Shown in pieces: positions 4,305-48,687 of a stretch of 62,020 bases of DNA. This DNA comes from a virus (Duplodnaviria; Heunggongvirae; Uroviricota; Caudoviricetes). The stretch is taken from positions 64,001 to 126,020 of IMG/VR virus record IMGVR_UViG_3300023082_000008; one strand, 5' to 3'. The notes below the pieces were generated by a model, which was not told the origin of the DNA, made no database searches, and saw only the letters and a list, made by a program, of their open reading frames with translations. Position 1 is the first letter of the stretch. Each line of letters begins with the position of its first letter. Both the position numbers and the translations under genes were made by a program.

Positions 4305-6220
4305 GTCTAGTAAAGGGTGAAATTGAGAATCCGTACCAGTCGTTTATCAGCAAGTCCAGATATTCGAAATGGATTCCAGAAGAGACGCGTCGTGAGACGT
4401 GGCACGAAACGGTTAGCCGATATGTGACATACATGTCTAAGACGGACGCCGGTAGGAGACTAGGCAAGGCATTCTGGAACGATGCAGAAGTTGCTATCGA
4501 GAACCTAGACGTAATGCCCTCAATGCGTGGGCTTATGACCGCTGGTCCTGCACTAGAACGCGAAAACCTAGCGCAGTTTAACTGTTCATTCATTTCAGTT
4601 GATGACCCACGAGCGTTTGATGAGGCTCTGTACATTCTGATGAATGGTGTAGGCCTAGGATTCAGTGTTGAATCCCAGTACACATCACAGTTGCCAACCA
4701 TTCCTGTAACCCTTGAAAAGGTACAGACAGTTGTACGCCCCGGAGACAGCAAGGCTGGTTGGGCTCGCGGATTCCGTCAACTGATTACCCAGTTGTACTC
4801 AGGACAGATTCCGAAGTTCGACTTCCAAGACATTCGCCCCGCAGGCGCACGTCTAAAGACATTTGGTGGTCGCGCAAGCGGACCACAGCCTCTGTTTGAC
4901 CTGTTCCAGTTTACTGTGGACATGTTCGTGAATGCAGCAGGACGCAAGTTGACACCATTTGAGTGCCACCGCATTATGTGCAAGGTGGGTGAGGTCGTGG
5001 TTGTTGGAGGCGTTCGTCGTTCAGCACTGATCAGCCTGTCCGATCTTGGAGATTACGAAATGTCCAAGGCAAAGTCCGGTGCATGGTGGGAGTCAATGCC
5101 TGAATTGGCACTGGCAAACAACTCTGCTGTTTACAACAAGCAGCCTTCGATTGGTCAGTTCCTCACCGAGTGGGGTAACCTGTATGAGTCAAAGTCAGGC
5201 GAGCGCGGTATCTTCAATAAGGAATCTGCTGTGCGTGGCTCAAACGACCGTAGAGACTGGACAAAGATCGAGGGTACGAACCCTTGTGGAGAAATCCTAC
5301 TTCGCTCTAAGGGCCTATGCAACCTTACTGAGGTTATTGTTAAGTCCGAGGACACTGTTACAACTCTACAGCGTAAGGTTGAATTGGCTACCGCGTTGGG
5401 AACAGTGCAATCCAGCCTAACTAACTTTAAGTACCTGCGCAAGGCATGGCGTGACAACGCTGAGGAAGAGCGTCTTTTGGGCGTATCTCTCACAGGACAG
5501 TTTGGTCACACACTCTTGAATGGTTCTGAGGGACTAGACAAGTTGGCCGATGTACTCGACCTTCTTCGTTTGACCTCGATTGCAACCAACAAGGTTTACG
5601 CACGAAAGATTGGCATTAACCCATCGCAGGCAATTACCACGGTAAAGCCAAGCGGTACGGTTAGCCAGTTGACTGCATCAAGTTCAGGTATGCACCCATG
5701 GTACAGCGAGTTTTACATTCGTTCAGTCCGTGGAGATAACAAGGACCCACTGACCCAGTTCCTTATCGAGGCAGGCGTTCCCAACGAGCCAGACGTGATG
5801 AAGCCGAATGCAACAACTGTATTCTACTTCCCACAGAAGGCACCAGAGGGCGCGGTAACTCGAAAGGACTTGACTGCTATCCAGCACCTAGAGGTCTGGA
5901 AGGTATACAAACAGCACTGGACGGAGCACAACCCATCCATTACCATCAACCTCCACGAGGAAGAATGGATCAATGGCGCAGACTGGGTATACGACAACTG
6001 GGACAGCGTCGGTGGCTTGAGTTTCTTGCCATACGATTCCGGTACGTACAAGCAGGCCCCTTATCAGGAATGCAGTGAGCACGAGTACAACGAATTCATG
6101 AGCGGAATGCCAGCCATTGACTGGGATGACCTCAGCCTATTCGAAGAAGAGGACACGACGACCGGTAGTCAGACATTGAACTGCACGAGCGGTAACTGTG
6201 AACTTGTGGACATCTCCTAA
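4301..6220 (+). CDS. nrdJ: class II (B12-dependent) ribonucleotide reductase
   Basis: FNCSF, GGVRRSA, TNPCGEI, TTVKPSGT and C-terminal CTSGNC. No beta subunit nearby. Confidence 0.93.
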   Translation: MSLVKGEIENPYQSFISKSRYSKWIPEETRRETWHETVSRYVTYMSKTDAGRRLGKAFWNDAEVAIENLDVMPSMRGLMTAGPALERENLAQFNCSFISVDDPRAFDEALYILMNGVGLGFSVESQYTSQLPTIPVTLEKVQTVVRPGDSKAGWARGFRQLITQLYSGQIPKFDFQDIRPAGARLKTFGGRASGPQPLFDLFQFTVDMFVNAAGRKLTPFECHRIMCKVGEVVVVGGVRRSALISLSDLGDYEMSKAKSGAWWESMPELALANNSAVYNKQPSIGQFLTEWGNLYESKSGERGIFNKESAVRGSNDRRDWTKIEGTNPCGEILLRSKGLCNLTEVIVKSEDTVTTLQRKVELATALGTVQSSLTNFKYLRKAWRDNAEEERLLGVSLTGQFGHTLLNGSEGLDKLADVLDLLRLTSIATNKVYARKIGINPSQAITTVKPSGTVSQLTASSSGMHPWYSEFYIRSVRGDNKDPLTQFLIEAGVPNEPDVMKPNATTVFYFPQKAPEGAVTRKDLTAIQHLEVWKVYKQHWTEHNPSITINLHEEEWINGADWVYDNWDSVGGLSFLPYDSGTYKQAPYQECSEHEYNEFMSGMPAIDWDDLSLFEEEDTTTGSQTLNCTSGNCELVDIS

Positions 6221-6261
6221 CTCTGGTAGACTTTACAAGAGTTAGAGGCAGCACTATCCAG

Positions 6262-6299
6262 CCCCCATCCGAACAACTGAAGCCTCGGATGGGGGTTTC
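6262..6299 (+). terminator. intrinsic terminator
   Basis: CCCCCATCCGA / TCGGATGGGGG 11-bp stem followed by TTTCT. Confidence 0.8.
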
Positions 6300-6333
6300 T
6301 GCATTAGAATTATTGAAGGCGTACAATTATGGT

Positions 6334-7176
6334 ATGAGCAAACCAATTAATGGAACCCAACTAAAGGCCGCTTTCAAGAAGTGGGACGTAGACGCTGAGT
6401 ATCTTAGCGGATTCGAGACCCGTGGCCGACCAGCAAGCCTCGGATGGGGCGACGTCAAGGGCATCGTCATTCACCACACTGCTGATGAAACTCAGTCAGA
6501 ATCTTATGTGAATTGGCTATTCAAGACAGGTCGAGCAGACCTCCCAGCCCCATTGTGCCACTTTGCAACAAACAAGAAGGGCAAGACATATGTAGGAGCC
6601 CTTGGTCGTGCAAATCACGCCGGTAAAGGATCAGCAAGCGTACTAGACCTAGTAAAGTCAGAAAAGTATGACGGATTTAATAAAGAACTAAAGGGCGGTA
6701 ATTCCAAGGATGGAAACGCAGTCTTTTACGGTAATGAAGTTATGTACCGTGGAGTTAACGGTTTCCACATGACTAATGAACAGTATCAGGGAGTTCTCAA
6801 GTTTTGTGCCGCGTTGTGCGACTTCCACGGATGGTCAGCACTTAGCATCATTGGACACCGAGAGTGGGCATCTACCAAGATTGACCCTGGCTATGTTGAC
6901 ATGGCCAAGTTGCGTCGCGACGTGCAGAAATTGCTAGACAGTAAGGATTCAGCACCAGCGCCGGTAGAAGTAGATAGCCCAACAACCCTCAAGGTTCAGA
7001 CATATTACGTAAACAAAGACGTAGTCAACGGTTACGACAAGCCCAATGGTAAATCAAAGAAGCAGCGCTCACGCAACTTCAAGTTGTACACCGTAGCCTA
7101 CAAAATTGTTAATGGCGAAACATGGGTGCGTCATCCAGCGGGACTATGGTATCGAGAAGCGGGTCTTCGTAAGTGA
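6334..7176 (+). CDS. endolysin, N-acetylmuramoyl-L-alanine amidase (Amidase_2) with C-terminal SH3-like region
   Basis: GIVIHHTA, GRANHAG, IGHREW, KIDPG. Start ATG 6334, 6 nt after TACAAT. Confidence 0.9.
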   Translation: MSKPINGTQLKAAFKKWDVDAEYLSGFETRGRPASLGWGDVKGIVIHHTADETQSESYVNWLFKTGRADLPAPLCHFATNKKGKTYVGALGRANHAGKGSASVLDLVKSEKYDGFNKELKGGNSKDGNAVFYGNEVMYRGVNGFHMTNEQYQGVLKFCAALCDFHGWSALSIIGHREWASTKIDPGYVDMAKLRRDVQKLLDSKDSAPAPVEVDSPTTLKVQTYYVNKDVVNGYDKPNGKSKKQRSRNFKLYTVAYKIVNGETWVRHPAGLWYREAGLRK

Positions 7177-8095: not shown

Positions 8096-8122
8096 TAGAC
8101 CCATGAATGCTACAATAGCAAC

Positions 8123-14194: not shown

Positions 14195-14227
14195 GCTTCA
14201 TAAAGAATGTACTGATACACTATTTGC

Positions 14228-14602
14228 ATGAAGTGTATATTTACAGATTGCGGAAGAGATGCCCAGACCGCCGGATTGTGCTGGGGTCATTACAAACAAA
14301 AGGTTCAGGGCCGAACACTCAAGGCATTGAGGAAGCAAGGTCCAAAGGGCGACGGTAGTCCAGATGAAAGAGGATACATCAGAGTCAAGATAAAGGGGAA
14401 GATGTACCTCAAGCACAGACTGGTCATGGCCAAGCATCTAGGCAGAGAACTTCGTCTTTTCGAAAACGTTCACCACAAGAATGGCAACAAGGGAGATAAC
14501 ACTATCGAGAACCTTGAACTTTGGGTTACAAAACAACCCGCAGGCCAACGGCCAGAAGACCTCGTAGCCTATGCGCGAGAGATTCTTGAACTGTACGGCT
14601 GA
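14228..14602 (+). CDS. free-standing HNH homing endonuclease
   Basis: [37 protein letters not shown] plus an N-terminal CxxxxC...CxxH. Own leaderless promoter TGA-TACACT. Confidence 0.9.
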
Positions 14603-37900: not shown

Positions 37901-40860
37901 ATGAAATTATTACAAATCAGGCCAACATTAAGAACGGTACGATCACTACCGCTCACATCACCAATGCTACAATCGGTGAAGCACAGATCACTGGTGGAAT
38001 TAGCGCAAACAAGTTGACCGCCGGTACCGGTATCATCACTGACCTACAGGTAGGTAATGGTTCTAACAAGGGAAGTCTAAGGTCTGCTGATTACGTCGCC
38101 GGTACATCAGGATGGAAGATCGGTTATGATAATACTCTTCCAGCAGGGCAGAAGAACCTTCTTGAAATCAACGATGGTCTTATCAAGGCTCGCACACTAG
38201 AATTGCGTAATTCGCTCAACCTTATGCCTTCATCGTTTACAGATTTTGAAGGCCGCGCTTCATTCTATGATTCGTTGTTCCGATCTACAGACTGTGTTAT
38301 TACAGTTGGAGCGGGCGGTATGAATAGTACTCAAGCACTAATTATTAACCCTAATACGAGTACTGCGGGCTGGAAAGCGGGTCTCGCCACAGTAGATATT
38401 CCTTATAACATTGATGTTGAGTCAGGAAAGCAGTACATTATTTCTGGCTATCTAAGAAGTGCTTCTGCATGCACGGTAAAAATTGGTCTTGAATTTAACA
38501 CGCTAGAAACGGCGGCTTCGTCCGATCTCGCTATTACTACTACATACCAAAGATTTTCATTTTTGGCAACAGCAACAAGCACCGCTCAAAAGGCTGCTTT
38601 TATTATTGCAGGGACACAAGATGTAAACGTTTATGTAGATCGAGTAATGGTTGAGGAGCGCTTGGGAGCGTTAACGACTCCTTCCGTTTGGTCCCCACCA
38701 AGTTCTACGGTAATCGACGGAGGTCAGATTAAGACCAATAGCATTACTGCAAGTGAAGTGAACTCTAGCATCATTACCGCTGGCGATGTGTATTCAACAA
38801 CCGGATATATTGGAAAACTTACCTTTGATCAACTAGAAGGTGGAACAATTAAGGCCGCTGTTTCCATGGCAACAGAAGGCCGACTGAACGTTGGAAGCCG
38901 CATCACAATTGAAGAGCCAAAATCCAACGGTACAGGTGGTATTACCATTTGGGGAGACGATTCCCACACGATTGCTAAGGCACGTCTCCACCCAGACGGT
39001 AACTATCTTGATGGTATTTTGGTTGCTCAAGACATTACCGTTATTAAGGCCTTGCGCCTAACGGGTACTGGTTCTGCTATCGCATCAGAAGCACAAGTTA
39101 AACTAGAAAACGGTGTCTCTGATCCACCAGCACCCACCCTTACAGCAGGAACTATCATGTCCAACTGGCCTTATGTACCTGAAAACATGGAAGAAAGAGG
39201 GGTTACATGGGATTCTGTAACTGGACAGTGGTACCGTTTGCTATGGAGACTTGCTGATCGTGCGACGTTTATTCAGACAGTTTCTATGTCGGGTGTTGCT
39301 GGGTCTGTAATTCGTTTGGCAGAAACACCAGAACAGCCAGCAGTGCCAGGAAATCCCGGTTCTGGAGGGTTTGGAAGCGGCACATGGGATACACCAGCAG
39401 TACCTAAGCCGTACACTCTTGAGGCGGCAAACGGTATCGCAATTATTGGAGATTGGGTTTACACACACCAGCGTTTTGTATTCACTGGTGATGGGTCATA
39501 TCGTCGACAGTGGTACATTAACAAGCACATGAAGACCAATGGATCACTTGTTAGTTACATTGATTCTTGTGCTGTCGGCGCTGCAACCACGGACCACTAT
39601 CCTACCCTTGCTACTGATGGAGGCAACAATCTTTATTCTCTAGATTACATTGACCCCAACTATGTAAGAGTTAATAAGAGAAATCTGGACAACTTCTCTA
39701 TTTCTGCTGAGACTTGGATTTCAACAAGTACTTTGCCAGATTATCTTACTTCTGCGACGGTAACCACACAGGGAGCAACGACAAACGTGCTTTCTGTTCA
39801 AAATCATCAGGGACTCGTTACTCATTTTGATTTGACAAACCTAGGTTCTCAGTTGACTGCTATGCCACAATACGATTTCACCACGGACGCCAATTCATGG
39901 CTCGGTTACAAATATGGTACTGGTGCAGCATTCTATTCCTTTAAGGCCAATGATCGTAAGATGAGTCAGTACTCTAGTTATTACCCCACCAACTCAGAGA
40001 AATGGTGGGCACAGACAACTGACTACTCTGCTTCTGGTAGTACCAAGGCATCTCCTGAGTCGCTTGGCCTTTCCGTACCAGCCAGACGCTTTGTGACGGT
40101 TAAATTGGCACCACAGCCACCAGGAACCACTGGTTCTAGAGTTTACGTTGGTTATGGAGTTGTGTCTCCCGGAACTACAAAGAAGTTGCGCACCGAGGCA
40201 ATCGTTGATAGATCAATGACATTGACCAATCTCAAGGTAACAGGGTCAGATACGATGTCAACTTCCAACACCATGGGAGGAACCGCTCCAGCCAAACTAT
40301 GGGACGGATTTAATAACTCTTGGAATGGCAACGGTAATGGTACTTTGGGTTCTATTCAGTTCTCGGGAAGCGGTGCTAGTGCAACGGTAACCGATCCATT
40401 ACAACCAACGGACATTGCCAACAAAAGATATGTAGATTCTTCTACGAATGTTGTCAATCGAGTTACTACTGGTTTGTGGAATCGCAATGTTATTTATCCG
40501 AATAACACAAGTGACATGATGATGGGTCCATGGAACATAACGACGGCAGAAAAAAATGGGTCAACCAAGGCGCATATTGTCGCAGAGATTTCTTGTTATG
40601 CTGGTGGCAGCGGCGGTTCCCTACAAGACTGCGACCACAGATTGCAGGTTCAAATTAACGGGGGTGCTTGGACAGACATTTCGAGCAAGTACGTTACCAA
40701 CAACAACGTATACTGGTTGACTTTGGGCGGTGTTCTTAGCGGCTGGATTAATTACGCTGCTTCTGACACAGTATCAGTTAGATTGAAAACCAACGTTGCT
40801 GGTGGTGGATTCAACGTAGGTGTCGCAGGCGGTAACTTCATGGGAACATTCTTCAAGTAA
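31990..40860 (+). CDS. giant tail fibre / host-specificity protein (2956 aa)
   Basis: N-terminal FN3-like domains, collagen-like Gly-X-Y linkers, tandem repeat modules, several carbohydrate-binding-like modules, beta-helix-like spacers, and the PTDIANKRYVD fibre motif. Confidence 0.85.
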   Translation: MTRILLRDLAPGTKYQIQLRSKYGNNTSDWSPVYDFTTNLDAILPTQPTNIMWNSVGRSFLATWEAPTVDTTGGVLYNLGGYRVRISHVPSNKSVTYVINDTRFDFTYEMNEAAFGKARSPLNFEVQSLSATNPLNNSQFTSPVTGQNPIPTAPVMDPARTAIDMVEFSWSAAPDLDLVGYNVYASQTNGFSPGPTNLRSFVNGLQYNLVSPSTAPWYVHVRSVDIFGQESISSQVSGTITSSAKDTTAPANATALAATTAYDTTRNRSYITTTWTKSTDDGAGARDVQQYIIRYSSNGGTNWNYLYVPSNTTTARLDVDPATAYTIQIATQDYSGNTSVFLATSPTSITSAADTTAPSTPSAPVATGGVFQVFVNQANTKAAGGAMESDVDHYDVYMSTTNNFTTYDATTLKGSIQVGTVIGAVFTIPAATTNTTWYVKTVAVDKSNLRSPASAQATATVSLINSTSIDNAINLAISNAQTTATNAGNAAAVAIKSYVNEYSVNSSETVAPTTGWSTSTPTRTPGSFIWFRTTVTLNNNTTSTTNPALLTGNAGSTGSQGIPGTPGSNGQSLYTWLKYADTPTTGMSDDPTGKTYMGIAYNKSTATESSTYTDYEWTLIKGADGTDGKGISNTVVTYQIASSGTVAPTGTWNAAPTATTPGQFLWTRTVTTYTDATTTTAYAVSAHGATGSTGNTGATGTGISGTSVMYQVGNSGTTAPTGTWSAAPVATTTGQFLWTRTITTYTDATTATAYSVSAHGGTGAAGKGISSTAVTYQTATSGTVAPTGTWSASPTATTTGQFLWVRTITTYTDASTVTAYAVSAHGATGSTGSTGAAGRGVSGTTVTYQVGNSGTVEPTGTWSTSLVATTAPGQFLWTRTITTYTDSLNPTTAYAVSAHGSTGPQGNQGIQGPIGPNGLPTYTWIKYGTSATGAGFADLPDGKTYIGIAYNKTTQTESETPSDYEWSLIQGPQGVPGTPAASISLTSTTQVLTAPATGGATTPATAVVTGNAVNTTISAWEYSVDGGAFSATVPAGASRTGNVVTITGATMTARTIAVRMADANGIADTLTVAEVSNGATGATGNTGSTGAAGADAYTVILTNEAQVFLGSTTSANAGSTTTSVIAYKGAVQQTATIGTITGQVTGLTTAITNNGTNNATVTVTVTTALTTLSGTLTIPITVDGKSFTKTFSWSVGLAGAQGTTGNTGSTGVSVTAVTPFYAQVTTGSAAPASPGTVAAPPAPWVATEPTYVAGTELYTTNRITFSNTTYAYTAVVKSSSYAAAVVALTTANGKNKINYSTSAPTSSSVGAVGDFWMVRDATTGVISGQYELKTVAGSVYTWASQTIGNDVVAAGINAGKITVGEMSGDRITANTLTINKTTGLQSTLDAALNANPNLFPNSSFEKDDASASNVVTVTYPATPLIHGTRSMRVTRSATGDAYKLSPYNVPGAIVGGKTVTISWTARGTAGTVTGNQNTIQLQREGDGNIPAVNTVTPAALTSNAQRFSYTTTIPASASNYRLVFRTGANVNDYIEYDAVQVEVGDKATPWGLTPTEAAENAQNAAIQSFFINSNSTFSDWTGSWPEGSGVWGTGAPIKETVLVRTPPNAVRFTNSVVGDQWGMTYNTPLSTLPYSEYVVMEADVMLTSGNFNGSGLLLDWMGVTGNPRSSMHFATLEPSPALNKWYKFTQVFKRPTATGTWTGWNGYVMGNYSGLAGGNSAKSIIFDKVGLRPATQEEITAFNAPANLAAGMTTASNNAVASLKTLWGHPLDQTRIDGGDIYTQTIKANSLTLGDFTNYIADADLTDSSFSNWSITNGLTRIAAADINNPAYIQWVTASGGNAHIYNNNYFEVNPGDKFFFKCEVSAPSSNTNAVNLSGAMHAYGPTGATTTWPQLSPVAVTPGQGWTSYSGIIEIPAGVSSRAQFDPFAQSNSGTVAGQVIRMRRMSLRRMNGAELIVDGSITATKVGTNEIITNQANIKNGTITTAHITNATIGEAQITGGISANKLTAGTGIITDLQVGNGSNKGSLRSADYVAGTSGWKIGYDNTLPAGQKNLLEINDGLIKARTLELRNSLNLMPSSFTDFEGRASFYDSLFRSTDCVITVGAGGMNSTQALIINPNTSTAGWKAGLATVDIPYNIDVESGKQYIISGYLRSASACTVKIGLEFNTLETAASSDLAITTTYQRFSFLATATSTAQKAAFIIAGTQDVNVYVDRVMVEERLGALTTPSVWSPPSSTVIDGGQIKTNSITASEVNSSIITAGDVYSTTGYIGKLTFDQLEGGTIKAAVSMATEGRLNVGSRITIEEPKSNGTGGITIWGDDSHTIAKARLHPDGNYLDGILVAQDITVIKALRLTGTGSAIASEAQVKLENGVSDPPAPTLTAGTIMSNWPYVPENMEERGVTWDSVTGQWYRLLWRLADRATFIQTVSMSGVAGSVIRLAETPEQPAVPGNPGSGGFGSGTWDTPAVPKPYTLEAANGIAIIGDWVYTHQRFVFTGDGSYRRQWYINKHMKTNGSLVSYIDSCAVGAATTDHYPTLATDGGNNLYSLDYIDPNYVRVNKRNLDNFSISAETWISTSTLPDYLTSATVTTQGATTNVLSVQNHQGLVTHFDLTNLGSQLTAMPQYDFTTDANSWLGYKYGTGAAFYSFKANDRKMSQYSSYYPTNSEKWWAQTTDYSASGSTKASPESLGLSVPARRFVTVKLAPQPPGTTGSRVYVGYGVVSPGTTKKLRTEAIVDRSMTLTNLKVTGSDTMSTSNTMGGTAPAKLWDGFNNSWNGNGNGTLGSIQFSGSGASATVTDPLQPTDIANKRYVDSSTNVVNRVTTGLWNRNVIYPNNTSDMMMGPWNITTAEKNGSTKAHIVAEISCYAGGSGGSLQDCDHRLQVQINGGAWTDISSKYVTNNNVYWLTLGGVLSGWINYAASDTVSVRLKTNVAGGGFNVGVAGGNFMGTFFK
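33871..34700 (+). repeat. four tandem ~65-70-codon modules within the tail fibre gene
   Basis: Consensus G(I/V)SxTxVxYQxxxSGTxAPTGTWSxxPxATTxGQFLWxRTITTYTDxxxxxAYxVSAHG. Copies 2 and 4 share an identical 23-mer (34117-34139 and 34531-34553). Confidence 0.9.
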
Positions 40861-40887
40861 TTCGTTGTGAGCATGGTATAATCAATT

Positions 40888-41136
40888 ATGGATAAAAATG
40901 AATTGAAAGTCGTAGCACTAAAAGAGTCAATTTCTGAAATTGTTGCTCAATACGAGGACCGTATCGCAACTCTCAGGGCAGACCTGACGATTCAGGGAAC
41001 AGAAATTACTCAACTTACAGATCAAGTGAATTCTCTGAACTCAGTTGTGAACGAATATCAGCAAAAGGAAAATGAGAAAAATGTTTCGAAAGAAGAAGTT
41101 TCAAGCAGTAAAACTTCCAACGATCCGTCAGCCTAA
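40888..41136 (+). CDS. small coiled-coil hypothetical protein
   Basis: Heptad pattern. Promoter TGG-TATAAT 5 nt before ATG. Confidence 0.75.
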   Translation: MDKNELKVVALKESISEIVAQYEDRIATLRADLTIQGTEITQLTDQVNSLNSVVNEYQQKENEKNVSKEEVSSSKTSNDPSA

Positions 41137-41500
41137 GGACATTACCGATCTTCCTACGGGCACTGTTATCGAAACAGTGAATGGCGATTACTTTTACATT
41201 AAAGGCAGCAAAAAATTTCGAATTATTTCTGATCGCATTCTGTTCTCATGGTCGTTTCCCAGAACTGTATACGTTACTCAAGCGTGTGCAGATCGCTACA
41301 AAACATTTGGTAGATTGGGTTTTCGAGAAGGCACCATTATTCGCGATATTACCACTTCTGCAATATACTTGATTAGTGAGAACAAAAAGCGTTTGGTCAC
41401 AACACCAGACGCTCTTGATAATTTAGGCGTCGCCACAGACGGGATAATGCTCGTCTCACCCGAAGAGGCCGGTATTCATGAAGGAGGAGAAGACATATAG
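41072..41500 (+). CDS. hypothetical protein with two internally similar halves
   Basis: LPTGTVIETVNGDYFYIKGSKKFRI and FREGTIIRDITTSAIYLISENKKRLV resemble each other. Confidence 0.7.
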   Translation: MRKMFRKKKFQAVKLPTIRQPKDITDLPTGTVIETVNGDYFYIKGSKKFRIISDRILFSWSFPRTVYVTQACADRYKTFGRLGFREGTIIRDITTSAIYLISENKKRLVTTPDALDNLGVATDGIMLVSPEEAGIHEGGEDI

Positions 41501-41514
41501 CAAACTATATTAAA

Positions 41515-41937
41515 GTGACATGGAACAATGGAGAAACACTGTCTCGTGACTCACTGACTACCCTGTCCAACAACCAGGACTGGCTCAAGTCAAACATGGC
41601 CAAAACAAGATACATTGGAAGCCCAGGATTTCCACAAAGAGATGGAGCAAAAATTCTTGCGGGTATTTCTTATTTTCCCGGCACCTCGGGATCGTCACTG
41701 TTTTATATTCCCGTGAGTTTTGGTGACTATTTTAGCCCTGACTGTTACCCCGTGGTGACAACAGCGTTGCGCTCGGTTGGTGAAGACAGACTGTTCCACA
41801 GAATTTATGCGCTTGATGGTTCACACTGGATTACTTCCAGTGGTTTTATGATTGCTGGTTACGCTTACACTAACCCGGGCTGGGACAAAAACACTGTTGA
41901 CAACCTACACGTAGACTACATTGCCGTTGGATATTAA
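41515..41937 (+). CDS. hypothetical tail-associated protein
   Basis: Follows the fibre genes and ends VDYIAVGY, like fibre-associated beta domains. Confidence 0.6.
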   Translation: MTWNNGETLSRDSLTTLSNNQDWLKSNMAKTRYIGSPGFPQRDGAKILAGISYFPGTSGSSLFYIPVSFGDYFSPDCYPVVTTALRSVGEDRLFHRIYALDGSHWITSSGFMIAGYAYTNPGWDKNTVDNLHVDYIAVGY

Positions 41938-41959
41938 ATCGTAGTATAATTGTCTTAGC

Positions 41960-42310
41960 ATGCCTAAGACAAAGATTGCAAAAGTTAAGACGGCCAAGGC
42001 CGTTAAAATGTATTCGGCAAAACGCAGAGCGATTTATCATGCGGGTGAACAGATTGACCCACTTGTTGTTTTTGAAAGAGACAACTGGTTGTGTGGAATT
42101 TGCGGTAACATAATTAACCGCCGCCTGCATCACCCCGCCTGGGCCTGTGCTACCATTGATCACGTGGTTCCGATTAGCAAGGCCCTGGAATTGGGCTGGC
42201 CGGTTAACATGATCCACACGTATGATAATGTGCAGGCAGCGCACCGTCGCTGCAACGAACTCAAGTCGAACACCATTGACGGGACCTTGGTCCCCGTGGT
42301 AGACTTGTAG
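41960..42310 (+). CDS. HNH endonuclease
   Basis: ERDNWLCGICG...TIDHVVPISK...NVQAAHRRCNELK. Own promoter TATAAT at 41945-41950. Confidence 0.9.
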   Translation: MPKTKIAKVKTAKAVKMYSAKRRAIYHAGEQIDPLVVFERDNWLCGICGNIINRRLHHPAWACATIDHVVPISKALELGWPVNMIHTYDNVQAAHRRCNELKSNTIDGTLVPVVDL

Positions 42311-42330
42311 TCGACAACCGGAAGGTATAC

Positions 42331-43137
42331 ATGCCAGACACTATGCACTGGGCATTCGTGGGGGACCTACAAATTCCCTACCATGACCCAAGAGCCGTAA
42401 CCCTGTGGATGGACGTCATGAAATGGTGGCGACCAAAGGCTATTGATTTCACAGGCGACATTGATGATCAACTGTGTTACAGTTCTTTCTCGGACGGTAC
42501 CACGGATGAATTCTTCTCTATCATCAAAAAGGCTGAGAACGATTCTCCTATGCCGTATGTAAAAGAGCAGGCACACGAAGCCAAGAAGTTTTACGAGGAC
42601 GTGCGCGGTAGCCACAAGAAGGCTGATCTACACTCTTCTTTAGGCAATCATGACGTGCGCATCAACAAGTACATCGACAAGAAAGCGCCCGGCTATCTTG
42701 ATCAAATCACACCAGAGAATATGTGGGGGTTGGATTCACTTGGAATTTCATGGAGAACCTACGACGATGTACCTTTTCAACGATATGGAGACATATACGT
42801 CCACCATGGAGCAACTACGACAACTACAGGACTGGCTGTCAAATCCGATATTGAATCATACAACATCTCGCTCGTCCGTGGTCACGACCATCGAGGTGGA
42901 GTAGTCTACAAGACTTATCCGATGACCGGTAGGGTATTGCAGGGCATGGGCACAGGCCACATGTGCAACCCTAAGGCGTATGGTCTACGGTACACTATTA
43001 ATCCTTCATGGGAACTTGGGTTTGGTATTGGTCACGTTTACGACAACAGTCAAGGCATCGAAGAAGTCAAGTTGGACTTTGTCCGTATTACCCCAGACTA
43101 TACTTGTGTAGTTGATGGAAAACTTTTTAGGGGTTAG
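42331..43137 (+). CDS. calcineurin-like metallophosphoesterase
   Basis: GDLQIPYHD, GDIDD, LGNHD, VHHG and GHDH motifs. Confidence 0.88.
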   Translation: MPDTMHWAFVGDLQIPYHDPRAVTLWMDVMKWWRPKAIDFTGDIDDQLCYSSFSDGTTDEFFSIIKKAENDSPMPYVKEQAHEAKKFYEDVRGSHKKADLHSSLGNHDVRINKYIDKKAPGYLDQITPENMWGLDSLGISWRTYDDVPFQRYGDIYVHHGATTTTTGLAVKSDIESYNISLVRGHDHRGGVVYKTYPMTGRVLQGMGTGHMCNPKAYGLRYTINPSWELGFGIGHVYDNSQGIEEVKLDFVRITPDYTCVVDGKLFRG

Positions 43138-43140
43138 GCA

Positions 43141-43196
43141 ATAGATTTTCCTCCATTGTATAATGGGAGTATCCCAATGCATTGGAGGAAAACTAT
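43141..43196 (+). promoter_or_regulatory. SD-sequestering hairpin containing an internal promoter (holin leader)
   Basis: TTTTCCTCCA (43146-43155) pairs perfectly with TGGAGGAAAA (43183-43192). TATAAT at 43159-43164 lies inside the 5' arm. Confidence 0.75.
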
Positions 43197-43415
43197 ATGT
43201 GGACAAAGTTGTTCTGGAAAGACGCGGTAGAGCGCGTCATTTCAACCGCTGCGCAGGCAGCACTCGGCGTTATTGTAGCCGGTGGTATTGTAGGTTTAGC
43301 GACCTCCGCAGGTTGGATCATCATCGGCTCAGCAGCCGCAGCATCCTTGCTCAAGGCTCTTATCGCTGTGACCGTAGCAAGCAACGATATTTCACCGGCC
43401 TCACTGGCTAAGTAA
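43197..43415 (+). CDS. holin (r1t-like)
   Basis: MWTKLFWKDAVERVISTAAQAALGV... with two hydrophobic segments. SD GGAGG 8 nt before ATG 43197. Confidence 0.85.
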   Translation: MWTKLFWKDAVERVISTAAQAALGVIVAGGIVGLATSAGWIIIGSAAAASLLKALIAVTVASNDISPASLAK

Positions 43416-43416
43416 T

Positions 43417-43659
43417 ATGTTGACGTGTCAGAGGTGCCGAGGCAGAGTGTTCCTCGACCGTGATATAATGGACCATGACGGATACGAAACCGTCTGTGTT
43501 AATTGCGGCGAGAGGACCTTTGTCTCGGCCCGAAGCAAACTAGGGAATTGGATAACCAAGACAGAATATGAAGCGCGGAGACCGAAAGCAAAAAATACAT
43601 CGCGACAACGTTCCAGTGTACGTTATCCTGAACAAGAAATTGTACAAGGTACTGAGTAA
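43417..43659 (+). CDS. small zinc-ribbon protein
   Basis: CQRCRGRVFLDR...CVNCG. Confidence 0.7.
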   Translation: MLTCQRCRGRVFLDRDIMDHDGYETVCVNCGERTFVSARSKLGNWITKTEYEARRPKAKNTSRQRSSVRYPEQEIVQGTE

Positions 43660-44083
43660 GACTAAATCGACTGATCGCGCGGTACTTTGGAATTTTGAAG
43701 AAAAGACTCGTGAGGTGCACAGTTACGTAGCAGTCGCGAGGTATGGGGAAAAGGCCTACTCCCCGTATGAGATTGGAAATTTGTTAAACCGATCAAAGTA
43801 CACAATTAAGGCACTGTTCCACGAACTACCGGAACCATACCGTATTTATGCATTTACATCTGGCGAGCCCATTGGCCGCAGATGGGATGCTGATGGTGTC
43901 ATGGAGATTAGAGACGTACTCGCATCTAAACACTATGGTCACCCTAGAAACGATGGGGAAATTGTCCCCATGGCACTACCATCGCGCACAGAACTGCGCG
44001 CTATGCTCAATCAGGAGGCCGTCTACTATGTTAAGACAGAAAATGGAAGCGTTATTCCAACATGGAAAGCACACGATTTCTAA
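43568..44083 (+). CDS. probable DNA-binding protein
   Basis: AYSPYEIGNLLNRSKYTI helix-turn-helix-like segment. Basic composition. Confidence 0.55.
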   Translation: MKRGDRKQKIHRDNVPVYVILNKKLYKVLSKTKSTDRAVLWNFEEKTREVHSYVAVARYGEKAYSPYEIGNLLNRSKYTIKALFHELPEPYRIYAFTSGEPIGRRWDADGVMEIRDVLASKHYGHPRNDGEIVPMALPSRTELRAMLNQEAVYYVKTENGSVIPTWKAHDF

Positions 44084-44351
44084 ATCACGAGGCCTTAGGT
44101 ATCTTCCTCTTGATTACCAGGGAGGATACGTTTTTTCTTCGGGCGTTGCATACGGCCAGTTAAATCAAGTGCTTGATCTTGCAGCCAAAAAGCCTAGAAA
44201 AGCACCCGCTTTGCTGATGGTAGCGGAGGGTTGGTTAAAGGTAATCGAGAAACTAGATGAAGAGGGCGAATCGCCCAGACAGCCAATTGGTTTTCAGGTA
44301 AACGCACATCGAGAGGAGGAAACAGATGACAGCAACCAGAGTCAAGAGTGA
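44043..44351 (+). CDS. hypothetical protein (start uncertain)
   Basis: The 3' part of track ORF 43848-44351 fills the gap; its 5' part shadows the upstream gene. Confidence 0.55.
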   Translation: MEALFQHGKHTISKSRGLRYLPLDYQGGYVFSSGVAYGQLNQVLDLAAKKPRKAPALLMVAEGWLKVIEKLDEEGESPRQPIGFQVNAHREEETDDSNQSQE

Positions 44352-44550
44352 ATTGTCATACAAGTTAAATATTGGAAACTATGAGTCTTTCGACATTCTT
44401 GTAGGAATTGAGGCTGATGCACAGGATGGAGAGTCCGTGGTAGACGCTGAAAAGCGTGTCTCAGACCTCGTAGAAGCGATCCTGATGGAGCGCGTAACAG
44501 CAGCGACCAATCAGTTCATCCACAAAAAGAAGGCACCGGTGGAGGGATGA
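44326..44550 (+). CDS. hypothetical protein
   Basis: SD GAGGAGG. LSYKLNIGNYESFDI motif. Confidence 0.75.
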   Translation: MTATRVKSELSYKLNIGNYESFDILVGIEADAQDGESVVDAEKRVSDLVEAILMERVTAATNQFIHKKKAPVEG

Positions 44551-44918
44551 CACCTACACAAGAGGCCCACATGCTCACCACAGGTTACATCAACCTATGG
44601 AAAGCAAAGTACCCAAACGCAGGACAGCCCAACTTCAATCGAAATAAGGCCACTTTTGGCTGGAAGACGATGAAGATGGACATGTCCGTGGACGAAATCA
44701 AGGAACTGGTGGAGTTCTTTTTCACCATTCCAGACGCCAAGCAGCACGACCTGTCTAATTTCCACTGGAACTATGACCAGATTGTTGAGCGCTTTGCAGA
44801 AGTAAAGAAAGATAGAGCGCACCGTAAAGTGCTAGCCAAGCAGTCAGAACAACGAGTTAAGGAGCATGAGGAGAGACTTGCACGAATTAAAAGCGATCAG
44901 CGCAGTTCTGATCAATAA
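44547..44918 (+). CDS. hypothetical protein directly upstream of helicase
   Basis: Overlap-coupled ORF of 123 aa. Confidence 0.7.
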   Translation: MTPTQEAHMLTTGYINLWKAKYPNAGQPNFNRNKATFGWKTMKMDMSVDEIKELVEFFFTIPDAKQHDLSNFHWNYDQIVERFAEVKKDRAHRKVLAKQSEQRVKEHEERLARIKSDQRSSDQ

Positions 44919-46086
44919 AGACGCAGAAACCCTCTTTGGTTCCAATCTGGATGACTTTTTTGTAGAGTATGGTGACGTGTGGGGCGGTATTAAGGAATAC
45001 TACAACCGCCACCGCGAGATGCCAACCCCCGAGGTTGTTCATGAAATGTATGGACATTTCAAGGCAGCCGACGTAACGGGCGCGGTAGAGTTTTACATAG
45101 ATTCCCTAAGAGCAAACTTCCTAAAGAACAAGGGCAAAAACATTGCTATGGTGGCTGATGGTCTTTTCGAGCAGGCACCAGCAGAAGAAGTTATCGACGC
45201 TCTAATGGCCAAGTTGCAGGAATTGCGATCATATTCGATCACAGCAACAGATCACAACATTATGGACTTTGACGCAGCAGAAGAACGTTACGAGCAAGTT
45301 CGTGCCAAGGTAGCAGCCATGAACGGTGTTCCCGGTATTCCTTCGGGAGTTAAGACAATTGACGCTTCATACCCTACCGGCTGGGCTGGTGGAGACTTGA
45401 TTATTCTGCTGGGTTACACCGGTAGAAAAAAGTCATTCTTTTCAGCCCTGCTAGCCTGTGAGGCATTCCAGCGTGGCTATAAGCCGATGTACGTGTCTCT
45501 TGAAATGAAGGCTGACAAGGTACAGGATCGTATTTTCACGATCATGGGATCGGGCATGTTCCAAAACTCTGGGCTGTCATTGGGTGATATTCGCAAAGAT
45601 TCATTCGATACTTTCCGTGAACAGTGGGAGGGCAAGGGAGAGTTCATCGTTGTTAACAGCGACGGACGATCAGCCATTACTCCAAACGTGCTACAAGCCA
45701 AGATTGACCAGCACAAGCCTTCCATGCTTATTCTTGACTATGCTCAGTTGATGAGCGATAATGGTCAGAATGACAATATGACAATCAAGATGATGAACCT
45801 GTCAGTTCAACTTAAGTCTTTGGCTGTGGCGAACGACATTCCCATCATTCTGATTTCATCTGCAACACCAGACGGTAAGGTCGGAGACGACCCACCAACG
45901 ATTGAGCAGGTTGCATGGTCAAAGCAGTTGGCGTTTGACGCCGACCTAGCCTTCGCGGTACATGGTAGCGACGAAGGCGACATTGTTAGAATTGTGTGTA
46001 GAAAGAACAGAAACGGCCCACAGTTCGACCTTAGTCTTGACTGGGATATCAACAATGGTATTTGGAAGGAATTCTATTTGTCATGA
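44878..46086 (+). CDS. dnaB: DnaB-like replicative helicase
   Basis: Walker A variant GYTGRKKS, YVSLEM, LILDYAQLM, KNRNGP. Likely TTG start at 44878 after GAGGAG. Confidence 0.9.
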   Translation: MHELKAISAVLINKDAETLFGSNLDDFFVEYGDVWGGIKEYYNRHREMPTPEVVHEMYGHFKAADVTGAVEFYIDSLRANFLKNKGKNIAMVADGLFEQAPAEEVIDALMAKLQELRSYSITATDHNIMDFDAAEERYEQVRAKVAAMNGVPGIPSGVKTIDASYPTGWAGGDLIILLGYTGRKKSFFSALLACEAFQRGYKPMYVSLEMKADKVQDRIFTIMGSGMFQNSGLSLGDIRKDSFDTFREQWEGKGEFIVVNSDGRSAITPNVLQAKIDQHKPSMLILDYAQLMSDNGQNDNMTIKMMNLSVQLKSLAVANDIPIILISSATPDGKVGDDPPTIEQVAWSKQLAFDADLAFAVHGSDEGDIVRIVCRKNRNGPQFDLSLDWDINNGIWKEFYLS

Positions 46087-46388
46087 GTTATATTCATAAA
46101 GATGTGCACAAGATCACCGTGGATGGAGACATCGCAGAGATGGACATGGAGCGCCACAAGTCAGAACTTATCAGGACAATGCAGGACCAGTTGAGGGTAG
46201 ATGGTCACATTCCTCTGCTTGACATGGACCCTCAGTTCAGTGTAGGCTATGACTTTGAGCGTGACGTGCGCACCTTCACGTTGAGCGTGTTTGGAATTAA
46301 GGGAGATAATCCGTGGGACTACAGCGGGGTCTTGAGTGGCCGAGCGATCAAGAAGTCTACAACGAATCCCAAATCGCCGCAGTCCTAG
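46083..46388 (+). CDS. hypothetical protein between helicase and primase
   Basis: ATGA overlap with the helicase stop. Confidence 0.7.
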   Translation: MSYIHKDVHKITVDGDIAEMDMERHKSELIRTMQDQLRVDGHIPLLDMDPQFSVGYDFERDVRTFTLSVFGIKGDNPWDYSGVLSGRAIKKSTTNPKSPQS

Positions 46389-47362
46389 AAGAAATTGGTG
46401 TGGAGGTAAAGGGAGAGACCGAGAACGTTTTCTTGTGTCTCTGCCCTTTCCACAACAACTTCCATTCGCCTGCCATGGTTGTCAGTAAGTTCAAGGGATT
46501 GTACTACTGCAACAATGGTGGCTGTGGAGCGCGCGGTAATCTCAAGAAACTCATTGCAGAACGTTCTAACATGGACGAGTTTGCAGTTAACCGTATGCTC
46601 AACAAGTACAAGGAAGACGTTGACTTCCTAGAAGCAAGACGTCAAAGAGTAGAGGATTTCAAGTTTGAGGCTTATACCACGCACGATCTATCCCTACTCC
46701 GCTCTGCGTTCCCTTGTTCTAGAGCCCACGAATACATGCGTGGACGTGGTTTTGAAGACGACACCCTCAGGTCGTTCGATTGTGGGTACTCCGAGGATGA
46801 CCCAAGAGACATGGTCGTTGTGCCGGTACACGATCCAGACGGCATGGCAATCGGATTCGTTGGTCGTTCCGTGGGGGACAAAAGATTTCAGAATAGTGAC
46901 AATCTACCAAAGTCAAAAACCCTGTTCAATTACCATAACGCTAAACGAACGGGCGGTACAGTCGTTGTTGTGGAAGCGTCGTTTGACACCATGGCGGTAC
47001 ATCAAGCAGGATACCCAAACGTTGTGGCTACACTGGGATCAAGCCTCTCTAACAACCAAAGAGAAATCCTAGGAAGAACATTTGATACCATCATTGTTTT
47101 AACTGACTGGGACAAGGCTGGTCGTAAACTGGGCGAGCAGATTGAGTCCAAGTTCCGTCACAAGACGGTCAAGTGGGCTGCCATGGAGAACGGTTACTAC
47201 CCCCTCCTGCCGTCTGGGAAGATGTGTAAGGACGCCGCAGAAATGTTAGAGGAATTGGGTCCAGAGGCAATTAGACAGGTGCTTAGAAACGCCATGTCGC
47301 CCATCAACTACCATGCCATGATTGACGAGGATGCTGAAAAGCATGGCTACAGCATGGTATAA
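46313..47362 (+). CDS. dnaG: DNA primase (zinc finger plus TOPRIM)
   Basis: CPFH...CNNGGC zinc finger, VVVEASFD, LTDWDKAG. Confidence 0.9.
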   Translation: MGLQRGLEWPSDQEVYNESQIAAVLEEIGVEVKGETENVFLCLCPFHNNFHSPAMVVSKFKGLYYCNNGGCGARGNLKKLIAERSNMDEFAVNRMLNKYKEDVDFLEARRQRVEDFKFEAYTTHDLSLLRSAFPCSRAHEYMRGRGFEDDTLRSFDCGYSEDDPRDMVVVPVHDPDGMAIGFVGRSVGDKRFQNSDNLPKSKTLFNYHNAKRTGGTVVVVEASFDTMAVHQAGYPNVVATLGSSLSNNQREILGRTFDTIIVLTDWDKAGRKLGEQIESKFRHKTVKWAAMENGYYPLLPSGKMCKDAAEMLEELGPEAIRQVLRNAMSPINYHAMIDEDAEKHGYSMV

Positions 47363-47370
47363 TTGAGGTT

Positions 47371-47886
47371 ATGGTAGGACTTGCAGATTTCCAAAAGAGA
47401 ATGGGCACCACAACGGTGCGACCATCATGGCTCACTATCAAAAATGGTGAATCAAAGCAGTTGACGTTCCTCGGAGAGCCGAAGGATTTTAAGATTGTCG
47501 TAGAGCACGTTTCGCCAGAAGACTGGAAAAAGCGCGGTATCTGTACATACAATACCGGCCACTGCTTCGCCTGTGAGCAGAGAGCGTATGGATGGAATCA
47601 GAACATCAGAATCTACATTCCGGTGCTCATGAATCAGCGTCCATACGTGATCGCACAGGGCATTGGAGCCAATTCAGTATTGCACGATTTGGTGCAGGCC
47701 AAGCGAGAACGTGGTATAATTAGAGATGTAGTATTCGATGTGTCACGTAAAGGTGAGGGCAAGAGAAGCGCATATAGCGCAGTTCCCACAGACACACCCG
47801 CACCGCTATACAAGACACAAGTTGACATTGAATCATTGTTAAACAACATCACATACGACAAACAAAAAACATATTACAAGGAGTAA
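47371..47886 (+). CDS. single-stranded DNA-binding-like protein, Cys-containing copy
   Basis: gp32-like pattern (RIYIPVL...SRKGEG...Y) with CTYNTGHCFAC. Alignable by eye to the next gene. Confidence 0.6.
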   Translation: MVGLADFQKRMGTTTVRPSWLTIKNGESKQLTFLGEPKDFKIVVEHVSPEDWKKRGICTYNTGHCFACEQRAYGWNQNIRIYIPVLMNQRPYVIAQGIGANSVLHDLVQAKRERGIIRDVVFDVSRKGEGKRSAYSAVPTDTPAPLYKTQVDIESLLNNITYDKQKTYYKE

Positions 47887-47892
47887 CACAGA

Positions 47893-48687
47893 ATGCCATT
47901 TGAAGGACTAAGCGGTTTCCGCGAGCAGCAGGAGAAGAAAACGGTTGAAGAATCACCGTTTTTTAAGTTGACAGAAAAGGGCCAGAAGGCTCTTATTCGT
48001 CCACTAGTTGAGTTGGATAAGGAATCCATCAACTACTCAGAGGGTCGCCTCCCCCTCTTCACACAGGAGTTTGCAAATCCTCAGAAGTTCTGGCTGTCTA
48101 TTGAAGACACCCGTACTGATGAGGACCAGTCTGTCGGCTGGGAAATGATCGCAAAGTACGGCTGGTACGTACAGGACGCATCAAAGATTGATCCGAAGAA
48201 GAAGCAGCATTCGGACGGTAAGTTCAACTGGAACCCACAGCAGTTCGTTTACCTGCCTGTTCTAGTAAAGGACAAGCCAAGCGATGACCCTCGCGTCGAG
48301 GTAATGCGCGTTAAGTACCGTGGTGGTGAGGCTACAACCCTTATCGACTACGCAAACAGCGAACGTGAGTTCGACCCGGACGGTAATTCGTCTGATCCAT
48401 TCAAGTCAATTACTGACCGCTGGTGGAACTACAGCCGTAACAACGAGAGCGGTTTTGCAGTGCGCTACAACCTATCACCAAAGGATGCGTCGGATGACGT
48501 AAACGTATTGGATTTTGAGGTTCCTGACCTTAGCCAGTTCGTCAAGAGTATTCCCTATGGTGCTGATGGTTCCGAACAGCGTGCTTACCTACAGGTTGCG
48601 TCCAACACGGAGCCTCAGGCAGAGCAGGCTCCGATTGTAGCCGACACAGGCACGTCAAGTTCTGCGATTACCAAGGCAAACTGGTAA
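47893..48687 (+). CDS. single-stranded DNA-binding-like protein with low-complexity C-terminal tail
   Basis: Paralog of the preceding gene. Tail ends in W. Strong SD and downstream terminator. Confidence 0.65.
   Translation: MPFEGLSGFREQQEKKTVEESPFFKLTEKGQKALIRPLVELDKESINYSEGRLPLFTQEFANPQKFWLSIEDTRTDEDQSVGWEMIAKYGWYVQDASKIDPKKKQHSDGKFNWNPQQFVYLPVLVKDKPSDDPRVEVMRVKYRGGEATTLIDYANSEREFDPDGNSSDPFKSITDRWWNYSRNNESGFAVRYNLSPKDASDDVNVLDFEVPDLSQFVKSIPYGADGSEQRAYLQVASNTEPQAEQAPIVADTGTSSSAITKANW

Follow-up and report, generated by a model that had tools for sequence, protein, structure and literature searches.

A predicted translation lock set by the transcription start site at the holin gene of an uncultured actinophage

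The holin gene and its genomic surroundings

The analysed window is the whole stretch of 62,020 nucleotides. It covers the latter half of a virus record of 126 kb, estimated as 97% complete and recovered from a leaf-litter metagenome. Gene order agrees with that of Streptomyces phages of clusters BE and BK (family Stanwilliamsviridae), of which the phage is an uncultured relative. A gene for a large minor tail protein is followed by three small genes, an HNH endonuclease gene, a metallophosphoesterase gene, the slot occupied by the holin and a further small gene; beyond the latter lie one gene (annotated as helix-turn-helix DNA-binding in cultured relatives) and then the genes of a DnaB helicase and a primase. 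The holin slot thus lies where structural genes give way to replication genes, and the genes upstream of it are tail genes of late type. Megablast of 6.6 kb and tblastn of the holin against the phage collection gave no match, and relatives were gathered by protein searches; even in the nearest of them the phosphoesterase protein is only ~68% identical. A search of sequencing runs for this DNA, made with a 4-kb stretch and with a single gene, listed no RNA run, the one sample found being leaf-litter DNA and probably the source.

The holin gene (43197–43415, plus strand) encodes a protein of 72 amino acids with two hydrophobic helices. It matches the profiles PF16945 (E 2.4e-8; 34.4 bits against a cut-off of 26.9) and phrog_443 "holin" (E 3.8e-12), PF16945 being found in all 41 homologues, and the start codon (ATG 43197) is fixed by the alignment of 28 homologues. 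On these profile matches we assign the product to the r1t type of holins.

The metallophosphoesterase gene (42331–43137, plus strand; phrog_221, E 9.5e-55) is syntenic with the annotated metallophosphoesterase gene of BE/BK phages. It is preceded by a predicted promoter (42276–42305, plus strand) composed of TTGACG, a spacer of 17–18 nt and TGGTAGACT, which shares the form TTGAC...TGnTAnAnT with other promoters of this genome. The spacer also contains a GGGACC/GGTCCC hairpin. Given a consensus promoter upstream, and because no terminator-like site was found between it and position 43138, read-through RNA is expected to enter the holin leader, and this predicted promoter is its likely source.

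A zinc-ribbon gene (43417–43659, plus strand; phrog_12850, E 1.6e-9) begins 1 nt past the holin stop codon and is probably co-expressed with the holin; its CxxC...CxxC protein is conserved in relatives. Inside this gene lies a further hairpin (43433–43531; −53.4 kcal/mol, z −4.71), whose 5′ arm includes TGATATAAT (43461–69) and whose apex forms a small hairpin of its own (43477–94). Equivalents with energies from −47 to −66 kcal/mol are present in the relatives L030, L032, L034, L035, L199, L200 and L201, where the protein is conserved too. Possible readings of the element are another promoter-in-hairpin module, a site of RNA processing, or insulation of the replication genes that follow.

An endolysin homologue is encoded at ~6334–7176, 36 kb upstream of the holin, and BillNye has the same arrangement. 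In its leader (window 6214–6336) a hairpin formed by CTCCTAACTCT and AGAGTTAGAGG encloses a −10 box, TGGTAGACT, at 6224–32, and past it 6261–6300 forms a second, strong hairpin that resembles a terminator, its tail being rich in U. A possible leaderless start, ATG 6334, lies 7 nt past TACAAT. The leader element could represent a small RNA or an attenuator before the lysin.

A hairpin with a putative promoter in the holin leader

All 59 nt between the metallophosphoesterase stop codon (TAG 43135–37) and the holin start are occupied by a hairpin, which adjoins the stop codon directly. The original prediction had described it at 43141–43199, and the pairing as well as the positions of the Shine–Dalgarno (SD) sequence, the −10 box and the ATG given there all agree with the sequence. 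The anti-SD 5′ arm TTTTCCTCCA (43146–43155, plus strand), situated within the promoter spacer, is a perfect 10-bp complement of the 3′ arm TGGAGGAAAA (43183–43192, plus strand), and the latter carries the SD sequence GGAGG (43184–43188), 8 nt 5′ of the ATG. The stem is extended outward by pairing of ATAG (43141–44) with CTAT (43193–96) and inward by pairing of TGTAT (43157–61) with ATGCA (43177–81), one U·G pair among them. It is closed by the apical cap hairpin TGGGA-GTA-TCCCA (43164–43176, plus strand), and the axis of the hairpin coincides with the predicted transcription start site (TSS). RNAfold adds pairing of 43138–40 with 43198–43200, so the complete hairpin (43138–43200, plus strand) takes in the U and G of the holin start codon and amounts to a quasi-continuous helix of ~26 bp with small internal loops.

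The RNAfold check suggested for this leader confirmed the SD-burying hairpin: its minimum free energy is −30.1 kcal/mol against −14.2 ± 2.9 kcal/mol for 200 dinucleotide shuffles (z −5.47), and 0 of 200 shuffles reach the same stability. Of 120 SD-plus-start sites in the 126-kb genome, none buries its SD in a more stable structure than the holin leader, and the predicted probability that the SD is paired in read-through RNA is 1.00. A search with Rfam 15 covariance models yielded a sole match, on the other strand and at chance level (E 0.54). Chance origin of the hairpin was considered as well and is ruled out by the z-scores together with the genome rank.

A −10 box, TATAAT (43159–43164, plus strand), lies in the 5′ arm exactly as had been claimed, and its position is kept in 38 relatives. 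The associated −35 element is weak (TAGGCA, 43135–40), and in the window and in L034 the hexamer is directly preceded by TTG, with no TGn extension. All 38 distinct relatives have a −10 box of the TGnTAnAAT type 20–36 nt ahead of the start codon of whichever gene fills the slot. At least 10 start codons in the genome also have an extended −10 box (TGnTAnAnT) exactly 7–8 nt upstream of them, for example at window positions 8108, 9755, 14213, 15199, 47355 and 59123. A −10 box 7–8 nt before a start codon is the signature of leaderless mRNAs in actinobacteria, and the pattern indicates, at the level of motifs, that putative leaderless mRNAs are widespread in this phage, its structural gene region included. 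The recurrence of the motif in front of at least 10 start codons argues that TGnTAnAAT is a working promoter type here. With a start 7 nt past the hexamer (~43171, in the apical loop), the predicted transcript would omit the whole 5′ arm.

Accessibility of the ribosome-binding site (RBS) was expressed as the opening energy, that is, the cost of holding single-stranded a segment that begins immediately 5′ of the SD and includes the start codon. For the holin this cost is 18.5 kcal/mol in read-through RNA versus 3.7 kcal/mol in RNA beginning at the predicted TSS, 7 nt past TATAAT. The former value is the highest among the 120 sites, for which the genome median is 7.9 and the 95th percentile 13.6 kcal/mol; the short RNA has no significant structure. 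The difference between long and short RNA is 14.7 kcal/mol for the holin, and it ranges from −1.9 to +3.7 kcal/mol in 11 further genes of this phage with an extended −10 box 20–57 nt upstream.

A strategy shared with two HNH genes of the same genome had also been proposed. Both sites do exist: in the two HNH endonuclease genes (PF13392 and PF01844; window 14213–14238 and 41945–41972) the AUG lies in the loop of a small hairpin just past a −10 box. The hairpins are weak (−5.6 and −9.3 kcal/mol), have no SD and stand on leaderless-type promoters, and in this respect the proposal was overstated. Read-through RNA of these genes would already be silent without any lock, because translation from an AUG that has no SD depends on its being 5′-terminal. 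The HNH genes would thus share the outcome with the holin but use a different device.

Leaders of related phages

Related phages have a common layout in which an anti-SD lies 5′ of the −10 box, the loop falls near the TSS and the 3′ arm consists of the leader including the SD, although stem sequences are wholly different between lineages. It is found in L204/L205 (a perfect stem of 17 bp, −33.8 kcal/mol) as well as in L206, L201–203, L200, L199, L196, L038, L029 and L035. The closest group of the window (L037, L032, L030 and L034) has the layout together with a cap comparable to TGGGA-GTA-TCCCA, and it also occurs in the BK-cluster isolates L021–27 and L172 (Karimac: −17.9 kcal/mol, z −4.08). 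Opening differences are ~7–14 kcal/mol in the window, L035, L201/203, L204, L206, L038, L093, L172, L021 and L023–27, and only 2–4 kcal/mol in the four closest relatives. At least 6 predicted pairs between promoter region and leader are present in 25 of 27 lineage representatives, and the outermost 3′ partner falls at −9 to +6 of the start codon in 19 of the 27.

About 30% of lineages, including the BillNye-like L008–L015, Beuffert, L005, L016 and L020, have either a hairpin around the −10 box that leaves the SD uncovered or one that is not significant. Their opening differences do not exceed 1 kcal/mol, with z of 0.38 and −0.44. Because the SD is uncovered in so many lineages, its occlusion cannot be the sole conserved role of the element. 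The claim that read-through RNA is silent and internally started RNA translatable fits the opening energies of the window (18.5 and 3.7 kcal/mol), and the uncovered SD in these lineages counts against it.

The gap between phosphoesterase and holin genes is uniform across relatives (46–64 nt). Among BK phages one and the same leader stands in front of genes for two unrelated small membrane proteins (L021 versus L022–27), and therefore the cassette outlived a gene swap. In L030/L031, a close relative, insertion of an extra HNH_3 endonuclease gene (1914–2441) has separated the phosphoesterase gene from the holin leader, whose hairpin persists downstream of the insertion.

Covariation in the leaders of relatives had been named as a check, and its outcome was divided. 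Column-wise analysis with RNAalifold on MAFFT alignments gave a weak consensus in which compensatory pairs were scarce or lacking (3 of 12 pairs in the window's group, 0 of 24 in the BillNye group). For the window's group such covariation is unscorable, since the pairing register slides by 2–4 columns between relatives. An alignment-free replacement test, in which each promoter region (−40 to −1) was duplexed with its own leader or with the leaders of permuted lineages, gave a summed energy of −442.8 for own pairs against −313.9 ± 15.7 for permuted ones (z −8.2; 0 of 100,000 permutations). The result holds when only 22 well-separated lineages are used (z −7.6) and when the SD-to-AUG part is removed (z ~−6; in this variant sentinel values for very short leader pieces distort the energy sums, and only z is meaningful). 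Three control pairings, with far-upstream sequence, coding sequence and the reversed leader, gave z of 0.12, 0.16 and −0.16. As own pairs surpass permuted pairs and the controls stay near zero, complementarity between promoter and leader is maintained lineage by lineage.

Burial of the SD of an r1t-type holin was also observed in metagenome contigs of unrelated high-GC phages (L100, L105 and L110), where CACCTCTGT is paired with ACGGAGGTG in a hairpin ~80 nt before the holin start. The loop in L105 (~10 nt) is too short for a promoter; those of L100 and L110 are longer. Judging by these contigs, SD occlusion may be common in the r1t-type holin family even without the promoter trick.

A candidate translation lock and its alternatives

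We propose that the element is a translation lock of the T4 gene e type, whose state would be set by the site of transcription start, and we estimate the probability of this reading at roughly 0.57. It is consistent with every computational test run. Computation shows the structure, its exceptional strength for this genome, the constant place of the −10 box and the lineage-specific match of promoter and leader; where transcription starts, whether read-through RNA is present, how translation responds and how timing follows from this are inferred, as set out next. RNA started upstream, at least from the promoter at 42276–42305 and probably from the tail genes too, would include both arms of the hairpin. 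These would fold upon transcription, burying the SD and part of the AUG in the ~26-bp helix, and 30S subunits would be barred from the RBS, so that read-through transcripts would yield no holin. The holin's own promoter, with its TATAAT inside the 5′ arm, would start RNA at ~43171 in the apical loop; lacking the anti-SD arm, such RNA would have a nearly open RBS and could be translated. The dose of holin, and hence the timing of lysis, would then be set by a weak internal promoter insulated from upstream transcription.

Sequestration of an RBS depending on the transcription start is documented for T4 genes e, soc, 49 and I-TevI in section 29 of PMC3014915, three of which (e, soc and I-TevI) had been named as established cases. 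The holin leader resembles this group in having the SD and/or AUG in a helix on transcripts started upstream (here predicted), and in placing a promoter in the DNA for the 5′ strand, so that transcripts lack that strand; for the window this second feature is read from a sequence motif and its conservation. The controlled product is likewise a lysis or otherwise harmful protein, and the arrangement is kept in related phages with varied sequence and is absent from some. Differences are also evident: the T4 late promoter TATAAATA needs a phage sigma factor, whereas the −10 boxes here are of host type (TATAAT; TGnTAnAAT in relatives), and gene e encodes the endolysin of a coliphage, unlike a holin acting in an actinobacterial host. 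The hairpin of the window, predicted from sequence, moreover fills the full intergenic gap and has its apex at the predicted TSS, unlike those of T4. Read-through in T4 comes from early genes, but here it would come from late-type tail and phosphoesterase genes. Silencing on late RNA reverses the T4 timing and therefore calls for a dose-insulation argument: the lock would shield the amount of holin from strongly transcribed late RNA rather than hold back an early transcript, as happens in T4.

The leaders of Aeromonas phage Aeh1 mobE and T4 segB also hide the RBS of a potentially harmful embedded gene in a hairpin, according to PMC3014915; there the genes encode homing endonucleases, and here a holin. 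The HNH genes of the window, with no SD and weak hairpins, are not close parallels of mobE and segB. In phage lambda the sdi stem-loop of gene S sets the ratio of holin and antiholin start codons on a single transcript, regardless of where the transcript starts; the window shares with it an RNA structure at the holin start that is predicted to tune holin production. The literature searched contained no study of transcription in Stanwilliamsviridae phages, nor any description of a hairpin that both buries the SD and holds a promoter at the holin of an actinophage.

The main rival of the lock is a terminator or insulator that would stop polymerase arriving from the tail and phosphoesterase genes; the nested promoter would escape it, and the presence of the SD in the 3′ arm would reflect nothing more than the compactness of the 59-nt gap. 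Like intrinsic (Rho-independent) terminators, the hairpin is stable and lies immediately 3′ of a stop codon, here at the point where the structural module meets the replication module. A U tract is missing from the window and from all 27 lineages, however (0–4 U in 8, the criterion being at least 5 U in 8), the bases past the SD-bearing 3′ arm are A-rich and run directly into the start codon, and a terminator scan of 38000–48000 did not have the holin hairpin among the sites found. Terminators without U have been reported for actinophage phiC31 (Ingham et al. 1995, as cited in PMC3993855), and in BillNye-like relatives the hairpin takes in nothing but the −10 box, the sequence past it being partly rich in U (4 U in 8). 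On the other hand, mycobacterial RNA polymerase is reported in PMC3993855 to need a U tract, and canonical U-tailed terminators are used in the same genome (window 3911–75, 14166–93 and 18668–710). The stems, which in 19 of 27 lineages span 17–26 bp up to the SD/AUG, exceed what a terminator needs, and an intrinsic terminator would have neither a promoter in its 5′ arm nor an SD in its 3′ arm. We regard this explanation as unlikely, although a terminator role could coexist with the lock. A function at the DNA level, with the inverted repeat serving as an operator or cruciform centred on the TSS and bound, for example, by the helix-turn-helix protein encoded downstream in relatives, appears quite improbable. 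Arms of 20–27 nt are wholly different between close relatives whose holins are 66–82% identical, which is not typical of a site bound by protein. Pairing also shifts in register from one relative to the next, the SD that makes up the 3′ arm is a signal read in RNA, and the arm sequence occurs once in the window, with no second copy. Such a function would nevertheless account for a dyad centred on the −10 box/TSS in nearly all lineages, including those with an uncovered SD, and no strand asymmetry was found that would speak for RNA. Counts of G·U and A·C mismatches in Watson–Crick-only arm alignments are ~7–11 and 11, respectively, and raw folding energies favour the plus strand (p 0.0004) but composition-corrected z-scores do not (−2.59 vs −2.53, p 0.58); as neither measure shows asymmetry, they leave a role in RNA unseparated from one in DNA. 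Among specific operators considered, a palindromic one was rejected, its half-site being neither conserved among relatives nor repeated in the window, although a regulator that co-evolves with its site could escape this argument, and a shared motif CTAACT...AGTTAG, derived from the endolysin and BillNye hairpins, was dropped with one site only.

It is also conceivable, though highly improbable in our view, that the hairpin is an RNase III-type processing site or a protective 3′ hairpin separating the upstream mRNA from the holin mRNA, in which case cleavage might free the SD. Long intergenic helices with small internal loops resemble the RNase III sites of phage T7, and the quasi-continuous ~26-bp helix has this appearance; a second, longer hairpin follows past the holin (43433–43531, −53.4 kcal/mol). 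Many of the related hairpins are shorter than 20 bp, however, and processing leaves unexplained why the −10 box is constantly placed in the 5′ arm. The least probable explanation, which we consider very doubtful, is translational coupling, whereby ribosomes that finish the phosphoesterase, whose stop codon lies 1 nt before the stem, would unwind the 5′ arm, so that holin output would track that of the upstream gene. The abutting stop codon and the uniform gap of 46–64 nt in relatives suit this idea, and the opening energy drops to 5.2–1.1 kcal/mol if unwinding extends to 43152–55. A realistic ribosome edge lies at 43146–48, however, and leaves 12.6–13.8 kcal/mol for opening the RBS, so coupling would be at most a leak. 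It is also at odds with the different gene, an HNH endonuclease, that precedes the same leader in L030/L031, and it leaves the conserved promoter unexplained.

Returning to the lock, we can sketch a broader version, which at present seems rather doubtful. Stanwilliamsviridae-like actinophages would carry a portable cassette in the holin slot, in which promoter–leader complementarity is continually re-made (sequence and register turn over, and pairing is kept) and which survives replacement of the holin. With similar modules at the endolysin leader (6214–6248) and at 43433–43531, translation that depends on the transcription start would be the general lysis timer of these phages, doing the work of an antiholin or of a late operon reserved for lysis.

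The time of lysis, which ranks among the main fitness traits of a phage, is set by the dose of holin. The computational case for a lock of the known T4-type principle at this actinophage holin is strong, the lock itself being a prediction from folding models. Cultured relatives offer a ready test system, as Karimac, StarPlatinum and LukeCage have the predicted lock and BillNye does not. If the lock works, it would be a compact natural "insulator" part, allowing a gene to be expressed only from its own promoter whatever the upstream transcription. It would also mean that a device so far documented in T4-type coliphages has been reached in actinophages too, where host-type promoters would serve it and continuing selection for promoter–leader complementarity would preserve it.
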